Positions 6,849 through 58,985 of a DNA stretch of 64,000 bases are shown here, piece by piece; the stretch's first letter is position 1; every line of letters starts with the position of its first letter. The position numbers were made by a program, and so were the translations under genes. Below the pieces are notes generated by a model that was given only the letters and a program-made list of their open reading frames with translations, had not been told where the DNA came from and searched no databases. Origin of the DNA: Candidatus Binatia bacterium (GTDB taxonomy: Bacteria > Desulfobacterota > Binatia > Bin18); assembly GCA_963664395.2 (NCBI GenBank), contig OY761159.2:2080001-2144000 (forward strand), given 5' to 3'.

Positions 6849-7392
6849 AAAAGGGATCGATATCGCACTCAAGTCGCTTGACTTGTCTGCCGGGGAGCAG
6901 AGAATGTCCGGATTTCTCCTCAAGAACCCATTTGGCGCAGTCCCGCTCCTTGAACTTGACGATGGTTCAGTCATTCCGGAATCGCTGGCCATTATCGAGT
7001 ATCTGGAAGAGCTGCACCCCGACCCGCCGCTGTGTGGCACGACGCCATTTGAACGAGCCCAGGTTCGGGCGTGGGAGCGCCGAGCGGAGTTTGGCGTGTT
7101 GCTCCAGGGCACCCGACGCTTTTTGCATACCAACCCGTTTTTTGCCTCGCGGGTCGAACAAAGTCCAAAAGTTGCGGAGGAAGCCGGTCAGGTGCTCACC
7201 GACCGGCTCTCCCTCTTCAATACTCATTTGAAAGACAACGAGTGGCTGGCCGGCGCGTGCTCGGTAGCAGACATCACTCTGTTTGTTTCCACTGAATTTG
7301 CTGCCAGGTCAAACTTTCAACTTGATCCCGCCTGGGAGCACCTGCAGCGCTGGTATGGAGCTATCAAGAAACGGCCGAGCGCAGAGGCATGA
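6787..7392 (+). CDS. Glutathione S-transferase family protein
   Basis: SPNCRRVRMYLAEKG, NPFGAVPLL, ESLAIIEYLEE, SVADI. Confidence 0.9.
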   Translation: MHLYDFPQSPNCRRVRMYLAEKGIDIALKSLDLSAGEQRMSGFLLKNPFGAVPLLELDDGSVIPESLAIIEYLEELHPDPPLCGTTPFERAQVRAWERRAEFGVLLQGTRRFLHTNPFFASRVEQSPKVAEEAGQVLTDRLSLFNTHLKDNEWLAGACSVADITLFVSTEFAARSNFQLDPAWEHLQRWYGAIKKRPSAEA

Positions 7393-7447
7393 CGGTCCGG
7401 CGTGCGCCGAAGGTGCGCTCTGTCTGCTCAAGAAAGGGAGGATTGCT

Positions 7448-7984
7448 ATGTCTCCATCCGAACTCTTTCACACTGACCACCTGAAAAGTGCGGTCATCCC
7501 GGGCTCTGTCCCGCTGGAAACGACCAATCCTGATTTCGAGACCTTTGAGGTCCTGGGCGTTGATCACCTTGATCTGACGGTGACGGATTTGAGCCGTTCT
7601 TTGCCCTTTTATACAAAGATTCTTGGCGCGCTGGGATTTCGCAAGCTCGTCCATCCGCATTACAACGGCTTCCATAACGCCCACTTGATTATCGGCATCA
7701 AGGCAGCCGCGGCAGAAGAAAAAGCAGCCGGCCATAACCGCTTTCGCGCCGGACTGCACCACCTGGCGCTCAAAGCCAAGCGCAAGGCAGATGTGGACCG
7801 CTTCCACGATTTTCTGGTTGCCGAAGGCATGCCTGTCCTTGATCCGCCAGCGGATTATCCCGAATACGGCCCACATTATTACGCCGTATTCTTTGCTGAC
7901 CCGGACGGCGTGAAGTTAGAGTTGGTGCACTATCCTGTGCCGTGGAGCTATTGGCGAGACACGCAAATGGCAGGCAATGGCTAG
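7448..7984 (+). CDS. VOC/glyoxalase family protein
   Basis: DHLDLTV, GLHHLAL, YYAVFFADPDGVKLELV. RBS GGGAGG. Confidence 0.85.
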   Translation: MSPSELFHTDHLKSAVIPGSVPLETTNPDFETFEVLGVDHLDLTVTDLSRSLPFYTKILGALGFRKLVHPHYNGFHNAHLIIGIKAAAAEEKAAGHNRFRAGLHHLALKAKRKADVDRFHDFLVAEGMPVLDPPADYPEYGPHYYAVFFADPDGVKLELVHYPVPWSYWRDTQMAGNG

Positions 7985-7987
7985 GTC

Positions 7988-8027
7988 CCAATACTCCCCA
8001 ATACCCCCCAATAACCTCCAATAACTC
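7988..8027. repeat. 10-bp imperfect tandem repeat x4 (CCAATAnnnn)
   Basis: Directly after the VOC gene stop codon. Confidence 0.8.
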
Positions 8028-8043
8028 CATTGAGAGGACACGC

Positions 8044-9039
8044 ATGACCACAGTGAGTATTTCGTTTGCAGGCGCCTCCGGGCTGACCGGCTTTCCGGAT
8101 TTCCCCGTGACGCTCGCCAGTCAGTTGCAAGAAGAATTTCCCCAAGCACACATCAATCTGATCCAAGACCCGGACCGGCGGCTGGCCGCACTCGCTGAGA
8201 CGGACGTGCTGTACGCCGTGCGGTTTAGCAAAAAGGACTTCGCCGCCGCCAAGCAGCTCAAATGGCTCCACCTCACTTCAGCCGGGGCCACGCATGTCTT
8301 GTTTCCGGAAATGATCGAGAGCGATATCGTTGTCACCAACTCGCGCGGCCTGTACGGCATTCCGATTGCCGAGCATGTGCTGGGTGTAATGCTCATGTTT
8401 GCCCGGCGCTTTCATGAGGCGTATCCCTTACAACGCGAAGGCAAGTGGGCCCGCCCGGAAATGCTCAGCCGCTTTGCGCTGATTGCCGAGCTGCATAGTC
8501 GGACCGTTGGCATTATCGGGCTGGGCAGTATTGGCCTGGCCGTGGCCGAACGCTGTAAGGCACTGGGCATGCGGGTTGTCGCCAACAAACGCCGAGGTGG
8601 AGACAAGCCGGCCTGTGTCGATGAACTCTTCGGCCCCAACGATCTGCCCCAACTCTTGGAGCAGTCGGACTATATTGTCATTGCCGCGCCGTTGACGCCG
8701 GAGACACAGGGCATGATCGGAGAGCAGGAACTCCGGCTGATGAAGCCCAGCGCTTTTATTCTGAATGTCGGACGCGGAGCGATCATTCAGGAAGCCGCCT
8801 TAATCCAAGCCCTCAAAGAAGACCGTCTCGGCGGCGCAGGGCTGGATGTCACCGACCCCGAGCCGCCGGAGGCGGACAGCGAGTTGTTTCACCTGCCGAA
8901 CGTCATTCTCACGCCCCATTATTCCGGCATTCGCTCACACTATTGGGAGCATTCGGTTGCGTTGTTCCGACCGATTCTCGGCCAGTATTTACGCGGCGAA
9001 CCGATGGATAACGTCGTGGACAAACGCGGCGGGTATTAG
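8044..9039 (+). CDS. D-2-hydroxyacid dehydrogenase (NAD-dependent)
   Basis: GIIGLGSIG, PLTPET, NVGRG, LDVTDPEP, TPH. Confidence 0.9.
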   Translation: MTTVSISFAGASGLTGFPDFPVTLASQLQEEFPQAHINLIQDPDRRLAALAETDVLYAVRFSKKDFAAAKQLKWLHLTSAGATHVLFPEMIESDIVVTNSRGLYGIPIAEHVLGVMLMFARRFHEAYPLQREGKWARPEMLSRFALIAELHSRTVGIIGLGSIGLAVAERCKALGMRVVANKRRGGDKPACVDELFGPNDLPQLLEQSDYIVIAAPLTPETQGMIGEQELRLMKPSAFILNVGRGAIIQEAALIQALKEDRLGGAGLDVTDPEPPEADSELFHLPNVILTPHYSGIRSHYWEHSVALFRPILGQYLRGEPMDNVVDKRGGY

Positions 9040-50507: not shown

Positions 50508-50541
50508 CATGGTGAACGACCTGAACATGGACAAGAAGGAG
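50508..50541 (+). repeat. Orphan copy of the hicA 3' end at the left edge of the defence island
   Basis: 31/34 identical to 58518-58551. Confidence 0.75.
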
Positions 50542-50614: not shown

Positions 50615-50863
50615 GTGAAAACGACGATTGATATCCATGACGAACTCCTGGCGCGGGCGAAACGTCACGCCAAGAAGACAGGTCGCCCCTTGCGTGCCGT
50701 GGTTGAGGACGGACTCCGTCAGGTCCTCGCCGCGCCCGCCTCCCGGAACCGCTACCGGCTGCCCGATTTGAGCACTGGCCATGCCGGCGCGGAGGACCCC
50801 CTCGAAGCCTACTCGTGGCAGGACCTGCGCGGGTTGGTCTACGGAGAGACTGAAACACAGTGA
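50615..50863 (+). CDS. vapB: VapB-type antitoxin (RHH/DUF2191-like)
   Basis: MKTTIDIHDELL.RAK, overlaps the downstream PIN gene. Confidence 0.85.
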   Translation: MKTTIDIHDELLARAKRHAKKTGRPLRAVVEDGLRQVLAAPASRNRYRLPDLSTGHAGAEDPLEAYSWQDLRGLVYGETETQ

Positions 50864-51294
50864 TTGCGGTCGATACGAACCTGCTCGTGTACGCGCACCG
50901 CAAGGAATCCCGCGTGCACGAAACAGCCTTTACGATCGTGCGGGCGCTTGCCGAAGGGAGCCAAGTGTGGGCGATTCCCTGGCCCTGCTGCTACGAATTC
51001 CTGAGTGTTGTAACAAACCCCCGAATTTGGAAAGACACGGCAACATCGCCGGAGCGCGCATGGCGGCAACTCGAAGCCTGGGCCACATCGCCAAGCAACC
51101 GCCTGCTCGGCGAGACCGACGACTTTCTCAAGGTTTTGAGCAGCCTCGTGCAGCGGCCGCGGGTGCGTGGTGCGGTTGTACACGATGCCCGGATCGCCGC
51201 GCTCTGTCTGGCGCACGGTACTGAAGCGCTACTCACCCGTGATCGCGATTTCTCGTTATTTCCAGAGCTGCGAACACGTGATCCATTCAGTTAG
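50860..51294 (+). CDS. vapC: VapC PIN-domain toxin
   Basis: IAVDTNLLVYA, EF, HDARIAA, TRDRDF. Confidence 0.92.
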   Translation: MIAVDTNLLVYAHRKESRVHETAFTIVRALAEGSQVWAIPWPCCYEFLSVVTNPRIWKDTATSPERAWRQLEAWATSPSNRLLGETDDFLKVLSSLVQRPRVRGAVVHDARIAALCLAHGTEALLTRDRDFSLFPELRTRDPFS

Positions 51295-51450: not shown

Positions 51451-54400
51451 ATGGACAACCGATTCTTCGAGCAGCCGATCTTGAACTCACCCTACGAGTA
51501 TCCCACGCAACACTGGGAGCTTGATGACCAGGGACAGCCAACACAGCAGATCATCGAAAGCCGCCGTCGGGCCGAGTTTATTACTCCCATTCCAAAGCCG
51601 AGAAAACGGAAAGGCTCATCGCACCAGCAGCAACTCGTCTTGGATGAGGGCAAAGGACTCTCAACCGCTGAGCAGCAGTACGACTCCACGTCAATTATCA
51701 CCGCGCTGCGCCGTCAGGTGGACCAGTGGCGCAGCCGACCAAATCGAGCCGACTGGCAGGTGACGCCCGAAACCGCTCGTCTGCTTCAACACTGGCGACA
51801 GCATACGTTCAACACTATCCGGCCCTTCTTCTGTCAGGTGGAAGCAGTTGAAACCGCTATCTGGCTGACCGAGGTCGCCCCGAGCGCGGGCAAGACCGGC
51901 AAAGACTTTCTGGACCATCTCACGAATGCCAATAACGACGCCAATCCGGGCTTGCTGCGCCTGGCGCTCAAACTCGCTACTGGCGCGGGTAAGACTACGG
52001 TTATGGCCATGCTGATTGCCTGGCAGACCATCAACGCAGTCCGCCGCCCAACGAGCAGAAGATTTACCCGAGGCTTTCTGATCGTCACGCCTGGCTTGAC
52101 GATCCGCGACCGGCTGCGCGTCCTGCAACCGAACGACCCGGACAGCTACTACGAAAGCCGAGAGCTGGTGCCGAACGACATGCTCGGCGACCTCGACCGG
52201 GCCAAGATCGTCATTACCAACTACCACGCCTTTAAGCTGCGTGAACGGATGGCGCTTTCAAAGGGTGGCCGCTCGCTACTCCAAGGCCGAGGCGCGGAGT
52301 TGGACACCTTGGAGACTGAAGGACAGATGATCCAGCGCGTCATGCCCGACCTCATGGGTATGAAAAATATCGTGGTGATGAACGACGAGGCACACCATTG
52401 CTACCGTGAGAAACCGGAAAAAGACGACGAAGGAACTCTGAAAGGCGACGAGCGAAAAGAAGCCGAGAAGAACAACGAGGCTGCGCGGCTCTGGATTTCC
52501 GGCCTGGAAGCCATAAACCGCAAGTTGGGTGTTGCACGGATCATGGATTTATCGGCCACCCCGTTCTTTCTACGCGGGTCGGGCTATGCCGAGGGGACAC
52601 TCTTCCCCTGGACGATGAGCGACTTTTCACTCATGGACGCCATCGAATGCGGCATCGTCAAACTGCCCCGCGTGCCTGTGGCCGACAATATCCCTGGCGG
52701 CGACATGCCCAAGTTCCGCAACCTGTGGGAACATATTCGCTCCCGGATGCCGAAAAAGGGCCGAGGCAAGGCCAAGACCCTCGACCCGCTCAGCCTGCCG
52801 GTTGAACTCCAGACCGCCCTGGAAGCCCTGTATGGTCATTACGAGAAGACCTTCAAGCTATGGCAGCAGGAAGGCATTCAGGTTCCGCCCTGTTTTATCG
52901 TGGTGTGCAACAACACCTCTACATCCAAGCTGGTCTACGACTACATCTCGGGCTTTCGGCGGGACAATGGGAACGATTCGACGGCGTTTGAGAATGGCCG
53001 CCTGCCGCTATTCCGGAACTATAATGCGGACGGGACTCAACTGGCGCGTCCACGTACTTTACTCATCGACAGCCAACAGCTCGAATCCGGTGATGCCCTG
53101 GACGCCAATTTTCGGGCTATGGCCGCGGGCGAGATTGACCGCTTCCGGCGGGAGATTATCGAACGCACCGGCGACCGCGGTCAGGCCGAGAATCTTTCCG
53201 ACCAAGACTTGCTTCGGGAAGTGATGAATACGGTCGGTAAACTAGGTCGGTTGGGCGAGTCGATTCGCTGCGTTGTCTCGGTATCCATGCTGACCGAAGG
53301 CTGGGACGCCAACACGGTCACGCATGTCCTGGGCGTGCGCGCCTTTGGCACTCAACTGCTGTGCGAGCAAGTCATTGGGCGCGCCTTGCGTCGGCAATCC
53401 TACGCTTTGAATGAAGATGATCTGTTCAATGTGGAATACGCCGATGTCCTGGGGATTCCGTTCGACTTCACCGCCAAGCCGGTCGTCGCCCCACCCCAGC
53501 CGCCCCGCGAGACTGTTCAGGTTCGAGCGGTGCGGCCCGACCGCGACCATCTTGCAATCCAGTTTCCACGTGTCGAAGGCTATCGCGTCGAACTGCCGGA
53601 GGAGCGGCTCAGCGCCGAGTTCAACGACGATTCCATTCTGGAGTTGACCCCGGACCTCGTTGGCCCCTCGATCACACGGAACGCGGGAATTATTGGAGAA
53701 GATGTTGACCTCAACCTCGTTCACACCGACGACCTACGGCGCTCCACCGTGTTGTTCCACGTTGCCAAGCGTTTGCTCTACACCAAATGGCGCGACCCTG
53801 GCGAAGAGCCGAAGCTCCACCTATTCGGCCAGTTGAAACACATCACCACACAATGGCTCGATACCTGCTTGATCTGCAAAGGCAGCACCTATCCTGCCCA
53901 GCTCATGTACCAGGAACTGGCCGACATGGCCTGCGAACGCATTACTGCCGGCATTACCCGCTCCTTCGTAGGCAGCCGACCCGTGAAAGCCGTATTGGAC
54001 CCGTACAACCCCACCGGCTCTACCATGCATGTGAACTTCAATACCTCAAAAGCGCATCGCTGGGAGACGGATGCACGGCGGTGTCACATCAACTGGGTTA
54101 TCCTCGACAGCGACTGGGAGGCCGAGTTTTGCCGCGTGGCCGAGTCGCATCCGGCCGTGCAGGCATACGTGAAGAATCACAACCTCGGTCTGGAGATACC
54201 CTACCGCTACGGCTCAACCCTGCGGACCTATATTCCTGACTTCATCGTCCTGCTGAATGACGGTCATGCCGATCCGTTGCACCTGATTGTTGAGATCAAG
54301 GGCTATCGGGGTGAAGACGCCAAGGAAAAGAAGTCTACCATGGAGACCTACTGGGTGCCTGGGGTGAATCGTCATGGGCAATATGGGCGTTGGGCCTTCG

Positions 54401-54543
54401 CCGAATTCACGGAGGTGTATCAGATCGAGGCCGACTTTCAGGCCACGCTCGAAGCGAGCTTCGACAGGCTTATCAATCGACCCCCTAGCCACTCCCCACT
54501 GAACAGAGGAGAAGATCATGAAATTGGAGGTAGTCGTCCATGA
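51451..54543 (+). CDS. res: Type III-like restriction endonuclease subunit (SF2 helicase plus PD-(D/E)XK nuclease; BPTD_3080-like)
   Basis: LATGAGKT, NDEAHH, SAT, LTEGWD, IGRALRR, PDF...IVEIKG. Confidence 0.92.
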   Translation: MDNRFFEQPILNSPYEYPTQHWELDDQGQPTQQIIESRRRAEFITPIPKPRKRKGSSHQQQLVLDEGKGLSTAEQQYDSTSIITALRRQVDQWRSRPNRADWQVTPETARLLQHWRQHTFNTIRPFFCQVEAVETAIWLTEVAPSAGKTGKDFLDHLTNANNDANPGLLRLALKLATGAGKTTVMAMLIAWQTINAVRRPTSRRFTRGFLIVTPGLTIRDRLRVLQPNDPDSYYESRELVPNDMLGDLDRAKIVITNYHAFKLRERMALSKGGRSLLQGRGAELDTLETEGQMIQRVMPDLMGMKNIVVMNDEAHHCYREKPEKDDEGTLKGDERKEAEKNNEAARLWISGLEAINRKLGVARIMDLSATPFFLRGSGYAEGTLFPWTMSDFSLMDAIECGIVKLPRVPVADNIPGGDMPKFRNLWEHIRSRMPKKGRGKAKTLDPLSLPVELQTALEALYGHYEKTFKLWQQEGIQVPPCFIVVCNNTSTSKLVYDYISGFRRDNGNDSTAFENGRLPLFRNYNADGTQLARPRTLLIDSQQLESGDALDANFRAMAAGEIDRFRREIIERTGDRGQAENLSDQDLLREVMNTVGKLGRLGESIRCVVSVSMLTEGWDANTVTHVLGVRAFGTQLLCEQVIGRALRRQSYALNEDDLFNVEYADVLGIPFDFTAKPVVAPPQPPRETVQVRAVRPDRDHLAIQFPRVEGYRVELPEERLSAEFNDDSILELTPDLVGPSITRNAGIIGEDVDLNLVHTDDLRRSTVLFHVAKRLLYTKWRDPGEEPKLHLFGQLKHITTQWLDTCLICKGSTYPAQLMYQELADMACERITAGITRSFVGSRPVKAVLDPYNPTGSTMHVNFNTSKAHRWETDARRCHINWVILDSDWEAEFCRVAESHPAVQAYVKNHNLGLEIPYRYGSTLRTYIPDFIVLLNDGHADPLHLIVEIKGYRGEDAKEKKSTMETYWVPGVNRHGQYGRWAFAEFTEVYQIEADFQATLEASFDRLINRPPSHSPLNRGEDHEIGGSRP

Positions 54544-54700
54544 AGCGGAGGAAGGTGGTTATTGGGCAGAGGTGCCCGCTATCCCCGGCTGCACGACTCA
54601 GGGAGAATCTTTTGAAGCACTGCTGAGCAATCTCTACGAAGCGGTTGAAGGGTGTCTGTCCGTGGATGTCCAGGAGATTCCCGCGTCGGACAAAGGTTAA
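54518..54700 (+). CDS. hicB: Short orphan HicB-family antitoxin, probably truncated
   Basis: EEGGYWAEVPAIPGCTTQGE..E...NL.EAVE; 60 aa, no adjacent hicA. Confidence 0.8.
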   Translation: MKLEVVVHEAEEGGYWAEVPAIPGCTTQGESFEALLSNLYEAVEGCLSVDVQEIPASDKG

Positions 54701-54705
54701 ATTCA

Positions 54706-57477
54706 ATGGCTCAATCCCGTGGCAAGAAGACGGCCAAGACCGTCGCAACACTCACGCACCCCGCCGCATCGCGCAAGAATATCCCCACGGCCGAGTTTCA
54801 GTCGGTGATGCGTAAGGACGAACAAAGTCCGATTCAGGTTGCCTATGAGCGTCGCAACCGCGATTTGGACCCGCAGTTGGTGTGGCGGGGGAAGGACGAA
54901 CAGGACTGGTCGGACTTGGTCGTCCAGGCACCACCGCTCTACATCCAGGAGAAAGTTCATCCCAAGGTCCTCATCGACGACCTGCTCCGTCAAACCAAAA
55001 CCGACGACAAAGCCGCCGACGCCCAATTCGACCTGTTCGCCGACTTCAACGGTCTGCCCGACGAGGCCCGCTCCACCGATTTCTACCAGCACGACGCCAA
55101 CTGGACCAACCGCATGATTCTGGGTGACTCACTCCAAGTGATGGCGTCGCTGGCGGAGCGGGAGGGGCTGCGCGGCAAGGTGCAGTGCATCTACATCGAT
55201 CCGCCCTACGGCATCAAGTTCAACTCCAACTTCCAGTGGTCCACGACCAGCCGCGATGTCAAGGACGGCAACACCGGTCACATCACCCGCGAGCCCGAAC
55301 AGGTGAAGGCGTTTCGGGATACGTGGCGGGATGGGATTCATTCGTATCTGACATATCTGCGGGACCGGCTGACCGTTGCACGGGATTTGCTGACGGAGAG
55401 CGGTTCTGTGTTTGTTCAGATTGGGGATGAGAATGTGCATCGGGTTCGGGCGCTGATGGATGAGGTGTTTGGAGAGGACAACTTTGTCTCCTGCATCTCA
55501 TTTAAGAAGACTTCTGGCTCAGGCGCAGCGTACTTGGAGAATATCTATGACATGCTTCTTTGGTATGCCAAGAAGCGCCCACTTATGAAGTATCGTAGGG
55601 CATTCTTGCCGAAGGCGGCTCAGTTGTTAGACACGCAATACACTGAACAGGACTCCATTCGGAAAGCGTACGTCCTTGGCGATCATCGATATATGCCGGA
55701 CACTATTAGCTCACAGGGAGCCAGCGAGTCAGGGACTTACCCGATAGAACTTGAAGGTAAGATTTTTGAATTACCGCCAAATACACATTGGAAGACTTCG
55801 CGAGAAGGGATGCCACGCCTGAAACTCGCTGGCCGGCTAATAGGGGTGGGTAGGCGCATCCGGTACAAGCGGTATGCCGACGATTTCTCTGTCACGACGT
55901 TCAGCAATAGCTGGGATGACACGATTGTGTCTGGATATACAGATCCAAAAATCTACGTTGTCCAGACATCACTAAAAGTTACTCAACGCTGCATCCTCAT
56001 GGCCACCGATCCCGGCGACCTAGTTCTCGACCCCACCTGCGGCGCAGGCACCACTGCCTACGTTGCCGAACAATGGGGCCGCCGCTGGATCACCATTGAC
56101 ACGTCTCGTGTGGCCTTGGCGCTGGCCCGTGCCCGCATTATGGGTGCGCGTTACCCTTACCACTTGCTGGCCGATAGTCGTGAGGGGCAACGTAAAGAAG
56201 CTGAAGTCACTCGGACTGCTCCCTCTGAAACGCCGGTGCATGGCAATATCCGTCAGGGGTTCGTCTACGAGCGTGTCCCGCATATTACGCTCAAATCCAT
56301 CGCCAATAATGCCGAGATCGATGTGATCTGGGAGAAGTTTCAGGCAATGCTCGAACCGCTGCGCGAGCAACTGAATTGTACGCTAGGACAAGAGAAGACG
56401 CCGTGGGAGGAGTGGGAAATTCCTCGTGAGGCTGACGCTGGCTGGTCGGAGGAGGCGAAGAGGCTCCATGCCGAGTGGTGGGAGCAGCGGATTGCGCGGC
56501 AGAAGGAAATTGATGCGTCTATCGCGGCCAAGGCCGACTATGAATACCTGTACGACAAACCCTACGAGGATAAGAAAAAGGTGCGGGTTGCCGGGCCGTT
56601 CACGGTCGAAAGTCTGTCTCCGCACCGGGTGTTGAGCGTGGACGAAGACGACGAATTGATCGACGGCGTTGCCGAGCCGGAAGCCGGGTACGGCGAAGAG
56701 CATGACTTCGCCCGGATGATTCTGGAAAACCTCAAGACCGCCGGCGTGCAGCAGGCGCATAAGGAAGACAAAATCGCCTTCACCGCAATCACCCCCTGGC
56801 CGGGCGATTTGATCTGCGCCGAGGGCCGCTACCTCGAAGGCGACCAGGAAGCCGGCACGGAAAAGCGCGCGGCAATTTTTATCGGCCCGGAGTTTGGTAC
56901 GGTCTCTCGTCCGGACTTGGTCCAAGCGGCCCGTGAGGCAGGTGACGCGGATTTCGACGCGCTGATTACCTGCGCCTTCAACTACGACGCGCGCTCATCC
57001 GAGTTTGACAAGCTCGGCCGCATTCCCGTGCTCAAGGCCCGCATGAACGCCGACCTGCACATGGCCGACGATCTGAAGAACACCGGCCAGGGCAATTTAT
57101 TCGTTATCTTCGGCGAGCCGGACATCGACATCCTGGACGCTGAGAACGGACAGGTTCGGGTCAAGATTAACGGCGTGGACGTGTTCCATCCGAACACCGG
57201 TGAAATCCGTAGCGACAACGCCGACGGCATCGCCTGCTGGTTTATCGACACCGACTACAACGAAGAGAGCTTCTTCGTTCGCCACGCCTATTTCCTCGGA
57301 GCCAACGACCCCTACAAAGCCCTCAAGACCACCCTCAAGGCCGAGATCAACGCAGACGCCTGGGCGACCCTCAACAGCGACACCTCCCGCCCGTTCGACA
57401 AACCCACGTCCGGGCGGATCGCCGTCAAGGTCATCAATCATCTGGGCGACGAGGTAATGAAGGTGTTTCGGGTATGA
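54706..57477 (+). CDS. mod: Site-specific adenine DNA methyltransferase (type III Mod-like, beta class)
   Basis: DPPY motif IV precedes DPTCGAGTT motif I, with a variable TRD in between. Confidence 0.93.
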   Translation: MAQSRGKKTAKTVATLTHPAASRKNIPTAEFQSVMRKDEQSPIQVAYERRNRDLDPQLVWRGKDEQDWSDLVVQAPPLYIQEKVHPKVLIDDLLRQTKTDDKAADAQFDLFADFNGLPDEARSTDFYQHDANWTNRMILGDSLQVMASLAEREGLRGKVQCIYIDPPYGIKFNSNFQWSTTSRDVKDGNTGHITREPEQVKAFRDTWRDGIHSYLTYLRDRLTVARDLLTESGSVFVQIGDENVHRVRALMDEVFGEDNFVSCISFKKTSGSGAAYLENIYDMLLWYAKKRPLMKYRRAFLPKAAQLLDTQYTEQDSIRKAYVLGDHRYMPDTISSQGASESGTYPIELEGKIFELPPNTHWKTSREGMPRLKLAGRLIGVGRRIRYKRYADDFSVTTFSNSWDDTIVSGYTDPKIYVVQTSLKVTQRCILMATDPGDLVLDPTCGAGTTAYVAEQWGRRWITIDTSRVALALARARIMGARYPYHLLADSREGQRKEAEVTRTAPSETPVHGNIRQGFVYERVPHITLKSIANNAEIDVIWEKFQAMLEPLREQLNCTLGQEKTPWEEWEIPREADAGWSEEAKRLHAEWWEQRIARQKEIDASIAAKADYEYLYDKPYEDKKKVRVAGPFTVESLSPHRVLSVDEDDELIDGVAEPEAGYGEEHDFARMILENLKTAGVQQAHKEDKIAFTAITPWPGDLICAEGRYLEGDQEAGTEKRAAIFIGPEFGTVSRPDLVQAAREAGDADFDALITCAFNYDARSSEFDKLGRIPVLKARMNADLHMADDLKNTGQGNLFVIFGEPDIDILDAENGQVRVKINGVDVFHPNTGEIRSDNADGIACWFIDTDYNEESFFVRHAYFLGANDPYKALKTTLKAEINADAWATLNSDTSRPFDKPTSGRIAVKVINHLGDEVMKVFRV

Positions 57478-57872
57478 CAATACCATCGCCGAAACAAGTC
57501 TTTGACGACCCGACAGAGCATTGGGCCTTTCTCACCCAAAGCTCTGATGACGATTTCGAGGGTCAGTATTTCGACCGTAAAGAGGCTGGCCGGGCGGGCG
57601 TTGACGCAAAAAGGCTGGAGAAGCAACTAGGAGGCATACGGGGTCAGATCAAAGAGACGATTTCTGCATTTGCCAACACAAACCGCAAGGGCGGGCTGCT
57701 CGTTCTCGGGATCGCCTCCAATGGAACCGTGAACGGCATTGACCACCTATCAGAACAGCAAAGGAACAGCCTGACAGATTTTGCGACACTCCTTCATCAT
57801 CAGGCAGCGGAACCCAAACTACATGAATGTGTGGATACTCAGGACAACTCTAAGACTATCTGTCTAATATTC
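57474..57872 (+). pseudogene. Schlafen/AlbA_2-domain gene, 5' fragment
   Basis: EGQYFDRKE...ETISAFANT..GGLLVLGI. Family resemblance ends at ICLIF (about 57872), after which the ORF runs out of frame over another gene. Confidence 0.8.
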
Positions 57873-58252
57873 GATTCTACGATAACCGGCCAGAAACAGA
57901 TGGTAGTCTGCGCCGCGGAAGCTACGTCGAAGCAGCGAAGAACAAAATCTACCTCTCGACGACCGGCTACAACCCGTTTCGTCGGGCGCTGGGAACACCG
58001 AAACCGCTGGAAGTCTCAGCGTGGGTCCATCGGCCAGAAGAATTACCGAGAGCGGAACTCGACCTTCGTGTTCTCGCAGTGCAAGTTCTAAACCTGACCA
58101 AGTTGAACTGGGCGTCTACAGATTCGTTCTGTGGAGAGCCTATTACTCTGAAGTACGCCGGAAACATTGCTTACTTAACCGCCGCATTTCTAAGACAATC
58201 CGAACCATTCAACCTCCACCCTGTTCTGGAAAAAACACCGTGGTTCATTTGA
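57866..58252 (+). pseudogene. C-terminal PIWI-domain fragment of a prokaryotic Argonaute
   Basis: Manual translation, with no start codon at its 5' end: NIRFYDNRPETDGSLRRGSYVEAAKNKIYLSTTGYNPFRRALGTPKPLEV...QVLNLTKLNWASTDSFCGEPITLKYAGNIA...EKTPWFI*. Shows PIWI motifs RG.Y, G.P.P, LTK.NW, P.T..YA and a C-terminal aromatic/hydrophobic tail. Confidence 0.85.
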
Positions 58253-58314
58253 TTCCGTAAGGACGGCCCCACTTGTGATGTAAGCTGCGCAGGTTGATCT
58301 ATGCCAAGTCGGGC

Positions 58315-58339
58315 TTGACAATCGTGCAAAAATGCACGA
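58315..58339 (+). promoter_or_regulatory. hicAB promoter -35 and palindromic operator
   Basis: TTGACA (58315-58320) followed by perfect IR TCGTGCA-AAAA-TGCACGA. Confidence 0.65.
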
Positions 58340-58350
58340 CGTAGCGTCTG

Positions 58351-58557
58351 ATGAAGAGCGGCGAATTCGTCAGACGGGCCTAGCGCTATGCAAAAAGAGT
58401 CGGGCTTGTATCCCACTTTAATCCGAGCCGAGGCAAGGGCAGTCACGGACGGCTTCACGTCGGAGATCGCTTGACTACCGTGCCGCGCAAGGAAATTGGG
58501 CCGGGCCTGTTGGCCGCCATGTTGAACGACCTTAACATCGACAAGAAGGAGTTCTGA
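58351..58557 (+). pseudogene. hicA: HicA toxin with in-frame TAG at codon 11
   Basis: MKSGEFVRRA*RYAK...RGKGSHGRL...TTVP.KEIGPGLLAAMLNDLNI. TGATG overlap with hicB. Confidence 0.85.
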
Positions 58558-58985
58558 TGCGGTACGCTTATCCATGCGTCTTGACGCCTGAAGAAGGCGG
58601 GGGCTTTTTCGTGCGTTTCCCCGATGTGCCGGGAGCGCTGACCTGTGGCGAAGACCGGACCGAAGCGTTGATGATGGCCGAGGACGCCTTGGCTGTAGCT
58701 CTCGCCGGTTACGTTCAGCAGCGGCGGGACATTCCCGCCCCAAGTCCTGTTAAAGCCGGCCAGGCAATCGTGACCCTGCCGCCACTTGTCGCCGCAAAGC
58801 TCGCGCTGTACACGGCGATGCGTCAGCAGGGCGTCACCAAGGTGGCCCTTGCAACTCGTTTGGGCCTGAGTGAGTCCGTCGTGCGCAGGCTTGTGAATCC
58901 CGAGCATCGCTCCCACATCAGCCAGATCGAAAAAGCCCTCCGCGCCGTCGGGCGCAAACTCGCAGTTGAGGATCAGGCGGCGTGA
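58557..58985 (+). CDS. hicB: HicB antitoxin with C-terminal HTH
   Basis: EEGGGFFVRFPDVPGALTCG..R.EAL.MAEDAL, HTH TKVALATRLG. Confidence 0.92.
   Translation: MRYAYPCVLTPEEGGGFFVRFPDVPGALTCGEDRTEALMMAEDALAVALAGYVQQRRDIPAPSPVKAGQAIVTLPPLVAAKLALYTAMRQQGVTKVALATRLGLSESVVRRLVNPEHRSHISQIEKALRAVGRKLAVEDQAA

Follow-up and report, generated by a model that had tools for sequence, protein, structure and literature searches.

The DNA stretch of 64,000 nucleotides (nt) from a Candidatus Binatia bacterium analyzed here (hereafter the window) carries, at positions 57474-58252, what is very probably a recently inactivated gene for a fusion of a Schlafen domain with a prokaryotic Argonaute (pAgo), that is, a SLFN-pAgo: the microhomology-deleted wreck of a fusion of 1124 amino acids (aa), lying behind an intact restriction-modification (R-M) gene pair of the BPTD_3080 type (res-mod). 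The ancestor would have been one 1124-aa protein in which a Schlafen (AlbA_2) nuclease at the N-terminus is followed by a probable GHKL-type ATPase and by a complete long-B Argonaute core that lacks the catalytic residues. A single deletion of 2596 nt between two TTCG copies would have taken out residues 134-996 and shifted the frame, leaving a 133-residue Schlafen stub with a nonsense tail of 72 codons and a presumably untranslatable 128-residue PIWI end. Devoid of an intact frame of about 1071-1187 residues, the window gene is a pseudogene of the SLFN-pAgo family and not a working member. Its parts are listed below by reference to the best intact relative (the protein P0001), an undeleted contig of the same genome bin (C7), and a public sequencing run (X16).

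57474..57873, plus strand: 5' remnant of the SLFN-pAgo gene, residues 1-133 (identity to P0001, PADLOC profile PDLC02394, Pfam AlbA_2)
57874..58091, plus strand: out-of-frame tail of the open reading frame (ORF) that starts at 57474, 72 codons and a stop, without homology
57866..58252, plus strand: 3' remnant, last 128 PIWI residues and stop, frame +3 (P0001 residues 997-1124, PDLC02394, 8fex_B)
57866..57873, no strand: deletion junction AATATTCG (comparison with C7, contig ends in X16)

The initial annotation had noticed, beside an AlbA_2 fragment, a 128-aa open frame missing from the ORF list, and both are present as it described them. Frame +3 is open over 132 codons (57854-58249), directly after a stop, and the translation of 57866-58255 reads NIRFY...RGSY...GTPKPL...QVLNLTKLNWAS...EPITLKYAGN...PWFI followed by a stop. 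The list overlooks this frame because its only start codon is a GTG at 58079, which yields an ORF of 57 aa. The other fragment lies in the 205-aa ORF 57474-58091, which matches Pfam SLFN_AlbA_2 (PF04326) with residues 29-118 (E 9.7e-9, profile positions 1-77 of 118); the 5' remnant comprises the first two thirds of this Schlafen domain, with the motifs E29-x4-D34-x-K36 and S64AFAN68, read in the window translation as EGQYFDRK and SAFAN. Compared with the PADLOC profiles, the same ORF aligns to positions 2-148 of the 1121 positions of PDLC02394 (E 3.3e-47) and the 132-aa piece matches 16 Argonaute profiles, with PDLC02394 again the best (E 2.6e-67, positions 995-1121 of 1121), both pieces mapping to opposite ends of one pAgo profile. 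On its own, the 132-aa piece also aligns to the PIWI end (chain residues 399-492 of 507) of 8fex_B, a short pAgo of solved structure, with E 2.1e-5. Both ends are nearly indistinguishable from P0001, with 133 of 133 identical residues for 57474-57872 and 127 of 128 (99.2%) for 57866-58249 against residues 997-1124. The identity of ORF 57474 to P0001 ends at residue 133, and the two matches overlap by 7 nt in different frames.

The relatives of these pieces give the shape of the lost protein. Among the 120 best of the 824 longer relatives of the 132-aa piece, most have 1120-1126 aa and PF04326, often together with PF13749 and PF02171. The best, P0001, is a single 1124-aa ORF from a metagenome assembly with AlbA_2 (PF04326) at residues 29-163 (E 1.4e-10), and many of its relatives, among the matches listed, carry precomputed matches to PF13749 (HATPase_c_4) and to PF02171 (Piwi). 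In phmmer searches, its residues 700-1123 match the solved Argonautes EcAgo, AaAgo, and CpAgo; a solved SLFN-pAgo chain, sought in the PDB in the same way, was not found, the best match being EcAgo 23wq (2.6e-14). An AlphaFold model of P0001 built on 29 relatives (mean predicted local distance difference test, pLDDT, 81.1) is closest to the long-B Argonaute RsAgo of Rhodobacter sphaeroides (6d8a_A, E 1.8e-26, target template modelling score, TM, 0.64), ahead of other prokaryotic and of eukaryotic Argonautes, and matches whole RsAgo chains with target TM of 0.61-0.66. As modelled, the intact allele has a complete long Argonaute core (N, PAZ, MID, and PIWI). RsAgo (PDB 5awh, 6d8a), its best fold match, is a protein that we take to be catalytically inactive and whose solved complexes hold guide RNA and target DNA, according to the PDB entry titles. 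It differs in having neither a Schlafen nor an ATPase part, and its identity to P0001 is about 15%.

The suspicion that this pAgo is slicer-dead also withstood closer inspection. When P0001 is aligned by phmmer to the Aquifex Argonaute AaAgo (1yvu), the three aspartate positions of the latter, those of its catalytic residues, fall on S895, S963, and G1095 (the glycine of KYAGN). Among the 29 relatives, S895 is invariant, S963 nearly invariant, and the consensus around the third position is KYAGD, the positions being kept non-acidic; E29, K36, S64, and F66 of the Schlafen part are invariant. The accessible part of a recent preprint likewise describes a clade without the tetrad (bioRxiv 10.64898/2026.05.29.728809, May 2026).

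This preprint was the only publication on the Schlafen-Argonaute fusion family that our literature search turned up. Its accessible text defines SLFN-pAgos as 78 proteins of 1071-1187 aa in the long-B clade, composed of Schlafen, GHKL ATPase, and PAZ-MID-PIWI without the catalytic tetrad, with the nuclease-site motifs E(x)4(D/E)xK and SAFAN in the Schlafen domain (10.64898/2026.05.29.728809); fusion of AlbA_2 Schlafen domains to several long-B pAgos also appears in the accessible part of an earlier survey (Ryazansky 2018). P0001 shares with the family, and with its studied member RzAgo, the AlbA_2 Schlafen, a probable GHKL ATPase, the long-B core, a length (1124 aa) within that range, the lack of the tetrad, both nuclease motifs, and a place in a defence island; it is by this architecture and these motifs that it was assigned to the family. 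Two differences stand out: the window copy is a deletion pseudogene, and its subclade has a conserved methyltransferase directly upstream, whereas the preprint, in its accessible part, reports no conserved linkage of SLFN-pAgo to any partner. The novelty that had been expected of a Schlafen-Argonaute defence did not hold, the family being already described, in that same text, as an autonomous defence system (10.64898/2026.05.29.728809).

According to the accessible part of the preprint, RzAgo of Runella zeae uses RNA guides and DNA targets, forms guide-induced filaments and ATP-driven tetramers, and responds to its target with tRNA cleavage, abolished by the D32A mutation; protection against phage requires both nuclease and ATPase, an ATPase-dead mutant being unprotective (10.64898/2026.05.29.728809). 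By analogy, the intact protein would load small RNA guides and be kept inactive in filaments. Pairing with complementary invader DNA would then free ATP-assembled tetramers, whose Schlafen domains would cut tRNA and thereby abort the infection. A division of labour of this kind, with an inactive Argonaute as sensor and a separate domain as effector, recalls the SPARTA-type short Argonaute systems (8fex_B). Short pAgos lack PAZ, and their TIR, SIR2, or nuclease partners act via APAZ. In the system considered here, by contrast, the effector is a Schlafen RNase fused to the N-terminus of a long pAgo.

How the gene was broken can be read from the strain variation in its own genome bin, which consists of a 4.8-Mb contig (C1), the one with the window, and of 13 smaller ones (10-26 kb; C2-C14). 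Each of the latter corresponds to part of C1, mostly with about 94-99% identity, and they are therefore strain variants, which probably explain the 5.37% contamination figure of the bin; compared with C1, several show insertions or gaps of their own. One of them, C7 (22.3 kb), matches the 19.7 kb of C1 that lead up to the junction with 98.06% identity and has upstream of the Argonaute gene the same res, small hicB-like ORF, and mod as C1. Past the junction it has 2.6 kb absent from C1, encoding P0001 residues 134-998. The undeleted allele persists in this population, and a profile scan of all contigs of the bin found the SLFN-pAgo family nowhere beyond the window and C7. C7 and the window agree up to ...CTAATATTCG, after which C7 reads TTCC... 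and the window ATTC...; the left breakpoint of C7 reads ...AATATTCG followed by TTCC, and the contig ends with ...CATAATGTTC, inside the right-hand copy of the motif. A perfect 4-nt microhomology, TTCG, occupies 57870-57873 within the 7-of-8 match AAT[A/G]TTCG, which bears out the microhomology deletion proposed beforehand. The missing part corresponds to gene nt 401-2996, or residues 134-996 of the ancestor. Its 2596 nt are not divisible by three, so that the 5' ORF continues into 72 nonsense codons; this tail (57874..58091), judged by its sequence, arose as a by-product of the deletion. That both ends are almost identical to the intact allele P0001 indicates a recent deletion. Without the ATPase, PAZ, MID, and the greater part of PIWI, the remnant should be non-functional.

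Somewhat against this expectation, the 205-aa stub might be translationally coupled to mod and retained as a small nuclease or regulator, in which case the remnant would keep a function. The motifs E-x4-D-x-K and SAFAN are kept, the ORF overlaps the stop of mod by 4 nt, and in a sister genome a comparable deletion is in frame and leaves an open frame of 487 aa. We nevertheless consider this very unlikely: AlbA_2 breaks off at profile position 77 of 118, the tail consists of frame-shifted nonsense codons, and, in the accessible part of the preprint, the ATPase-dead mutant of RzAgo loses protection and the nuclease needs ATP-driven tetramers (10.64898/2026.05.29.728809). In addition, each of the three copies in the genus is interrupted at a different place, a pattern suggestive of decay rather than of a selected form.

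Apart from that of the window, these copies come from a scan of the genus, in which strong Argonaute-core matches were found in three of the 24 other genomes (G008, G021, and G001). The SLFN-pAgo of G008 is intact, with 43% identity, and was rejected as a representative of the same lineage, this identity placing it in another clade. G021, a Candidatus Binatia metagenome-assembled genome, is syntenic with the window (locus L020; flanks with 96.7% and 87% nucleotide identity) and retains at the same site only scraps of res and mod, with an Argonaute gene that is frameshifted near residue 258 and has lost the residues from about 400 to 1023. In G001, residues 1-51 are joined in frame to 686-1124, with 92% identity, and a 37-aa remnant of mod lies upstream; we make no claim of a shared insertion site, the flanking genes of the window not being shared within 19 kb. 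The 487-aa frame left by this in-frame deletion (L054, G001:C1:678000-697000, positions 7281-8741, minus strand) combines 51 Schlafen residues with the MID-PIWI half, so that its predicted product would be short-Argonaute-like. The three genus genomes with the lineage of the window (G000, G001, and G021, all species representatives) thus each have a different internal deletion, and the R-M pair, intact in the window, is destroyed in G021 and has been lost at least in part from G001. Other matches of the scan were set aside: those restricted to profile positions of about 50-450 are stand-alone Schlafen-ATPase proteins and not Argonautes, and weak matches to the PIWI region in G008, G011, G017, and G023 (E 1.8e-8 to 2.2e-6) seem to belong to Argonautes of other types. 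Other loci contain broken copies too, with a 1.6-kb insertion (L016), only the C-terminal part (L021 and L039), a stop codon (L014), or a frameshift (L028), while 13 of the 17 genomic loci are intact. This recurrent, polymorphic loss of SLFN-pAgo is a second, modest addition to what is known of the family.

Another possibility is that the junction is an assembly chimera and that the real genome carries the full gene of C7. C7 does end within the microhomology at the right breakpoint, and the bin does contain 13 strain-variant contigs and the contamination already mentioned. This objection, which the initial annotation had raised itself, can be answered with public sequencing runs. Among the matches listed, 20 runs hold part of the stretch, the named ones being sponge metagenomes, and the contigs of four of them (X1, X15, X16, and X17, with four study codes) were aligned to the window at 92% likeness, at which joints may come from other organisms. 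Runs sharing few sequence words with the window (X5-X14) enter neither this alignment nor the statement on habitat. One contig of X17 (record 31) spans 57831-58646 across the junction with zero differences and one of X1 (record 5) spans 57831-58109 with one other letter; both include 35 letters to the left of the junction, at least as many on each side, and the two runs carry different study codes. The junction is therefore not an assembly error, since contigs from two runs with other study codes bridge it. Moreover, an 8-nt match cannot mislead a long-read assembler or one using k=31, and C7, which differs by about 2% from C1 over 19.7 kb, comes from another strain and is a separate molecule. 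A chimera is, for these reasons, extremely unlikely. In X16, a contig stops at 57873 and a second one begins at 57870, as expected of a k-mer graph in which deleted and undeleted alleles branch, and in X15 a contig (record 16) that meets the window at 57870 has, ahead of this position, 123 letters that do not match the window. A further joint, 57760->57831, with depths of 2.9-11, is present in contigs of X1, X15, and X17 and leaves out 70 nt of the Schlafen stub; it may represent another deletion variant of the population and could also stem from another organism, given the 92% likeness.

An ancestral two-gene operon of Schlafen effector and Argonaute, fused by the deletion, deserves practically no credence: separate Schlafen-containing partners of short Argonautes do exist, as stated in the accessible part of Ryazansky (2018), but P0001 is one 1124-aa protein matching both ends, in 23 loci a single stop-free frame spans the entire length, and the PADLOC profile spans 1121 positions. 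Of the ancestral arrangement initially proposed (res, mod, Schlafen, inactive pAgo, as operon or fusion), the order and the fusion stand and the operon falls; homologues of the two fragments do co-occur in one locus, in P0001 and in these 23 loci.

Several observations weigh against reading the locus as a recently deleted SLFN-pAgo gene with an undeleted allele at its side. The 132-aa fragment matches no Pfam family at E<=1, including PF02171 (Piwi), which had been proposed as the test of its identity, and full-length P0001 has no match to this family at E<=0.1; that the peptide is PIWI is supported by the PADLOC pAgo profiles, the sequence matches in the PDB (8fex_B), and the fold, not by Pfam Piwi. 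The HATPase_c_4 (PF13749) match of P0001 (residues 340-433, E 4e-5) reaches 24.0 bits, below the Pfam cut-off of 26 bits. The mechanism is carried over from a homologue, RzAgo. C7 stops exactly at the right breakpoint, which we read as a branch point of the assembly graph, and has three frame breaks of 1 nt each, two of them insertions in short base runs of the pAgo gene (A7GGG and GGAAAC), near residues 580 and 752, and the third in mod near residue 579; they may be consensus errors or real, so that the co-occurring allele may itself not be intact. Finally, the aligned runs are Logan contigs and not raw reads, which deprives them of allele frequencies, read starts, and strand information, and one of the best-holding runs may be the source sample.

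Directly upstream of the remnant, the window encodes the following genes.

51451..54543, plus strand: res, restriction endonuclease, 1030 aa, intact (NCBIfam NF046055, Pfam)
54518..54700, plus strand: HicB-like/UPF0150 ORF of 60 aa between res and mod (Pfam UPF0150 1.8e-6, HicB_lk_antitox 2.4e-5)
54652..57477, plus strand: mod, DNA methyltransferase, intact (PADLOC MTase_III, Pfam N6_N4_Mtase)

The res product has an N-terminal ResIII helicase (Pfam 3.9e-8) and a C-terminal RE_endonuc domain (3.3e-5), passes the NCBIfam equivalog cut-off for the BPTD_3080 family restriction endonucleases (NF046055, 1403.9 bits for a cut-off of 800, positions 1-968 of 970), and matches PADLOC REase_III weakly (2.3e-7). 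The mod ORF runs from a GTG at 54652, with an ATG at 54706 as the likely start, and matches the type III methyltransferase profile end to end (PADLOC MTase_III PDLC03632, E 0, positions 74-983 of 983; Pfam N6_N4_Mtase 2.4e-32); its stop overlaps the Argonaute ATG by 4 nt (ATGA). The 60-aa HicB-like ORF is 100% conserved in C7. Adjacent on one strand, res and mod qualify, on their predicted products, as a type III R-M system. The classical type III gene order is mod-res; here it is res-mod. In relatives from Planctomycetota, a GmrSD gene, in some together with a reverse transcriptase, stands between res and mod, where the window has the small HicB-like ORF.

The association of SLFN-pAgo with mod extends beyond the window. 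In species-representative genomes (17 loci), mod lies directly upstream in four (L006, L008, L010, and L014) and only as a remnant in two (L016 and L020), with a full res upstream in three and a remnant of it in L020. On metagenome contigs (22 loci, nine of them with no upstream sequence), mod is directly upstream in four (L023, L024, L025, and L028), reduced to a remnant in one (L026), and res is upstream in two. A 27-row tree, from which broken loci (L016, L020, and L021) and those cut by contig ends or truncated (L033 and L036-L044) were left out and in which L027 and L028 are partial sequences, places a mod homologue directly upstream in 10 of the 15 rows of one clade (support 100/100) and in none of the 12 rows outside it. 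Within the clade, L007, L018, L009, and L022 have no upstream mod, and L027 has no upstream sequence. The methyltransferase of the linked loci always ends with ...HLGDEVMKVFRV, and the Argonaute starts -4 to +155 nt after it on the same strand. The clade spans Planctomycetota, Pseudomonadota, Acidobacteriota, Thermodesulfobacteriota, and the lineage of the window itself, and its other neighbours vary (GmrSD, reverse transcriptase, UvrD-like helicase). Intact relatives behind the same R-M pair, as had been predicted, exist in L008, L010, and L025; L014 and L028 also have both R-M genes upstream, but their Argonaute gene has a stop or a frameshift, respectively. What remains of the proposed R-M coupling is a conserved adjacency in one subclade only, functional dependence being a step beyond it. 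This methyltransferase-linked subclade, as delineated by gene order and sequence, would be a modest addition to the known family and may already show in the figures of the preprint.

Poribacteria are a group of sponge symbionts. A poribacterial operon described in the accessible part of the preprint also places a SLFN-pAgo beside an R-M system, with a type I specificity subunit instead of the type III-like pair found here (10.64898/2026.05.29.728809). In L025, between res and mod (L025:4434-6681), two stretches match the Schlafen-ATPase part of P0001 with 25-27% identity, which indicates that this R-M unit contains a second Schlafen-ATPase gene, a stand-alone one. Such an arrangement is reminiscent of the exchange of modules between SLFN-pAgo and R-M systems described in the accessible part of the preprint (10.64898/2026.05.29.728809).

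A bolder proposal is that the BPTD_3080-type res-mod pair and SLFN-pAgo form, in this subclade, a single co-inherited and mutually dependent module that moved between at least four phyla, the repeated Argonaute deletions reflecting selection against an autoimmune cost in modules that have begun to decay. For example, products of methylation or restriction could determine which DNA the Argonaute treats as foreign; alternatively, shared transcription could tie a costly tRNase to the R-M system. We regard this proposal as doubtful.

Taken alone, the window gene is a dead copy of a defence system characterized in 2026 and brings no new biology. Its value is that of a natural experiment, with deleted and undeleted alleles in one population and three different deletions in three species, which provides a traceable, dated case of how fast an abortive-infection gene is lost. 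The tie between SLFN-pAgo and the methyltransferase in the subclade is not brought out by the accessible part of the published survey and, were it functional, would represent a new kind of cooperation between R-M and an Argonaute sensor.

Toxin-antitoxin genes flank the locus on both sides. Just upstream of res, 50615-51294 encodes a VapB antitoxin (Pfam 2.1e-5) and a VapC PIN toxin (TIGR00028, 89.7 bits for a cut-off of 73.6). Downstream of the remnant, a hicA toxin frame (58351-58557) directly precedes hicB (58557-58985, HicB_lk_antitox 1.2e-9) and has, after ten codons, an in-frame TAG (58381-58383); the part behind this stop matches Pfam HicA_toxin below the cut-off (6.1e-5). This hicA looks like a nonsense-inactivated toxin beside an intact antitoxin, as far as their sequences tell. 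The syntenic relative L020 has neither VapBC nor HicAB at this site. A direct repeat of 34 nt (50508-50541 and 58518-58551, 91% identical and 8010 nt apart), whose right copy is the 3' end of the hicA frame, brackets VapBC, res, mod, and the Argonaute remnant, and could be the trace of the insertion of an island or of the toxin-antitoxin genes.

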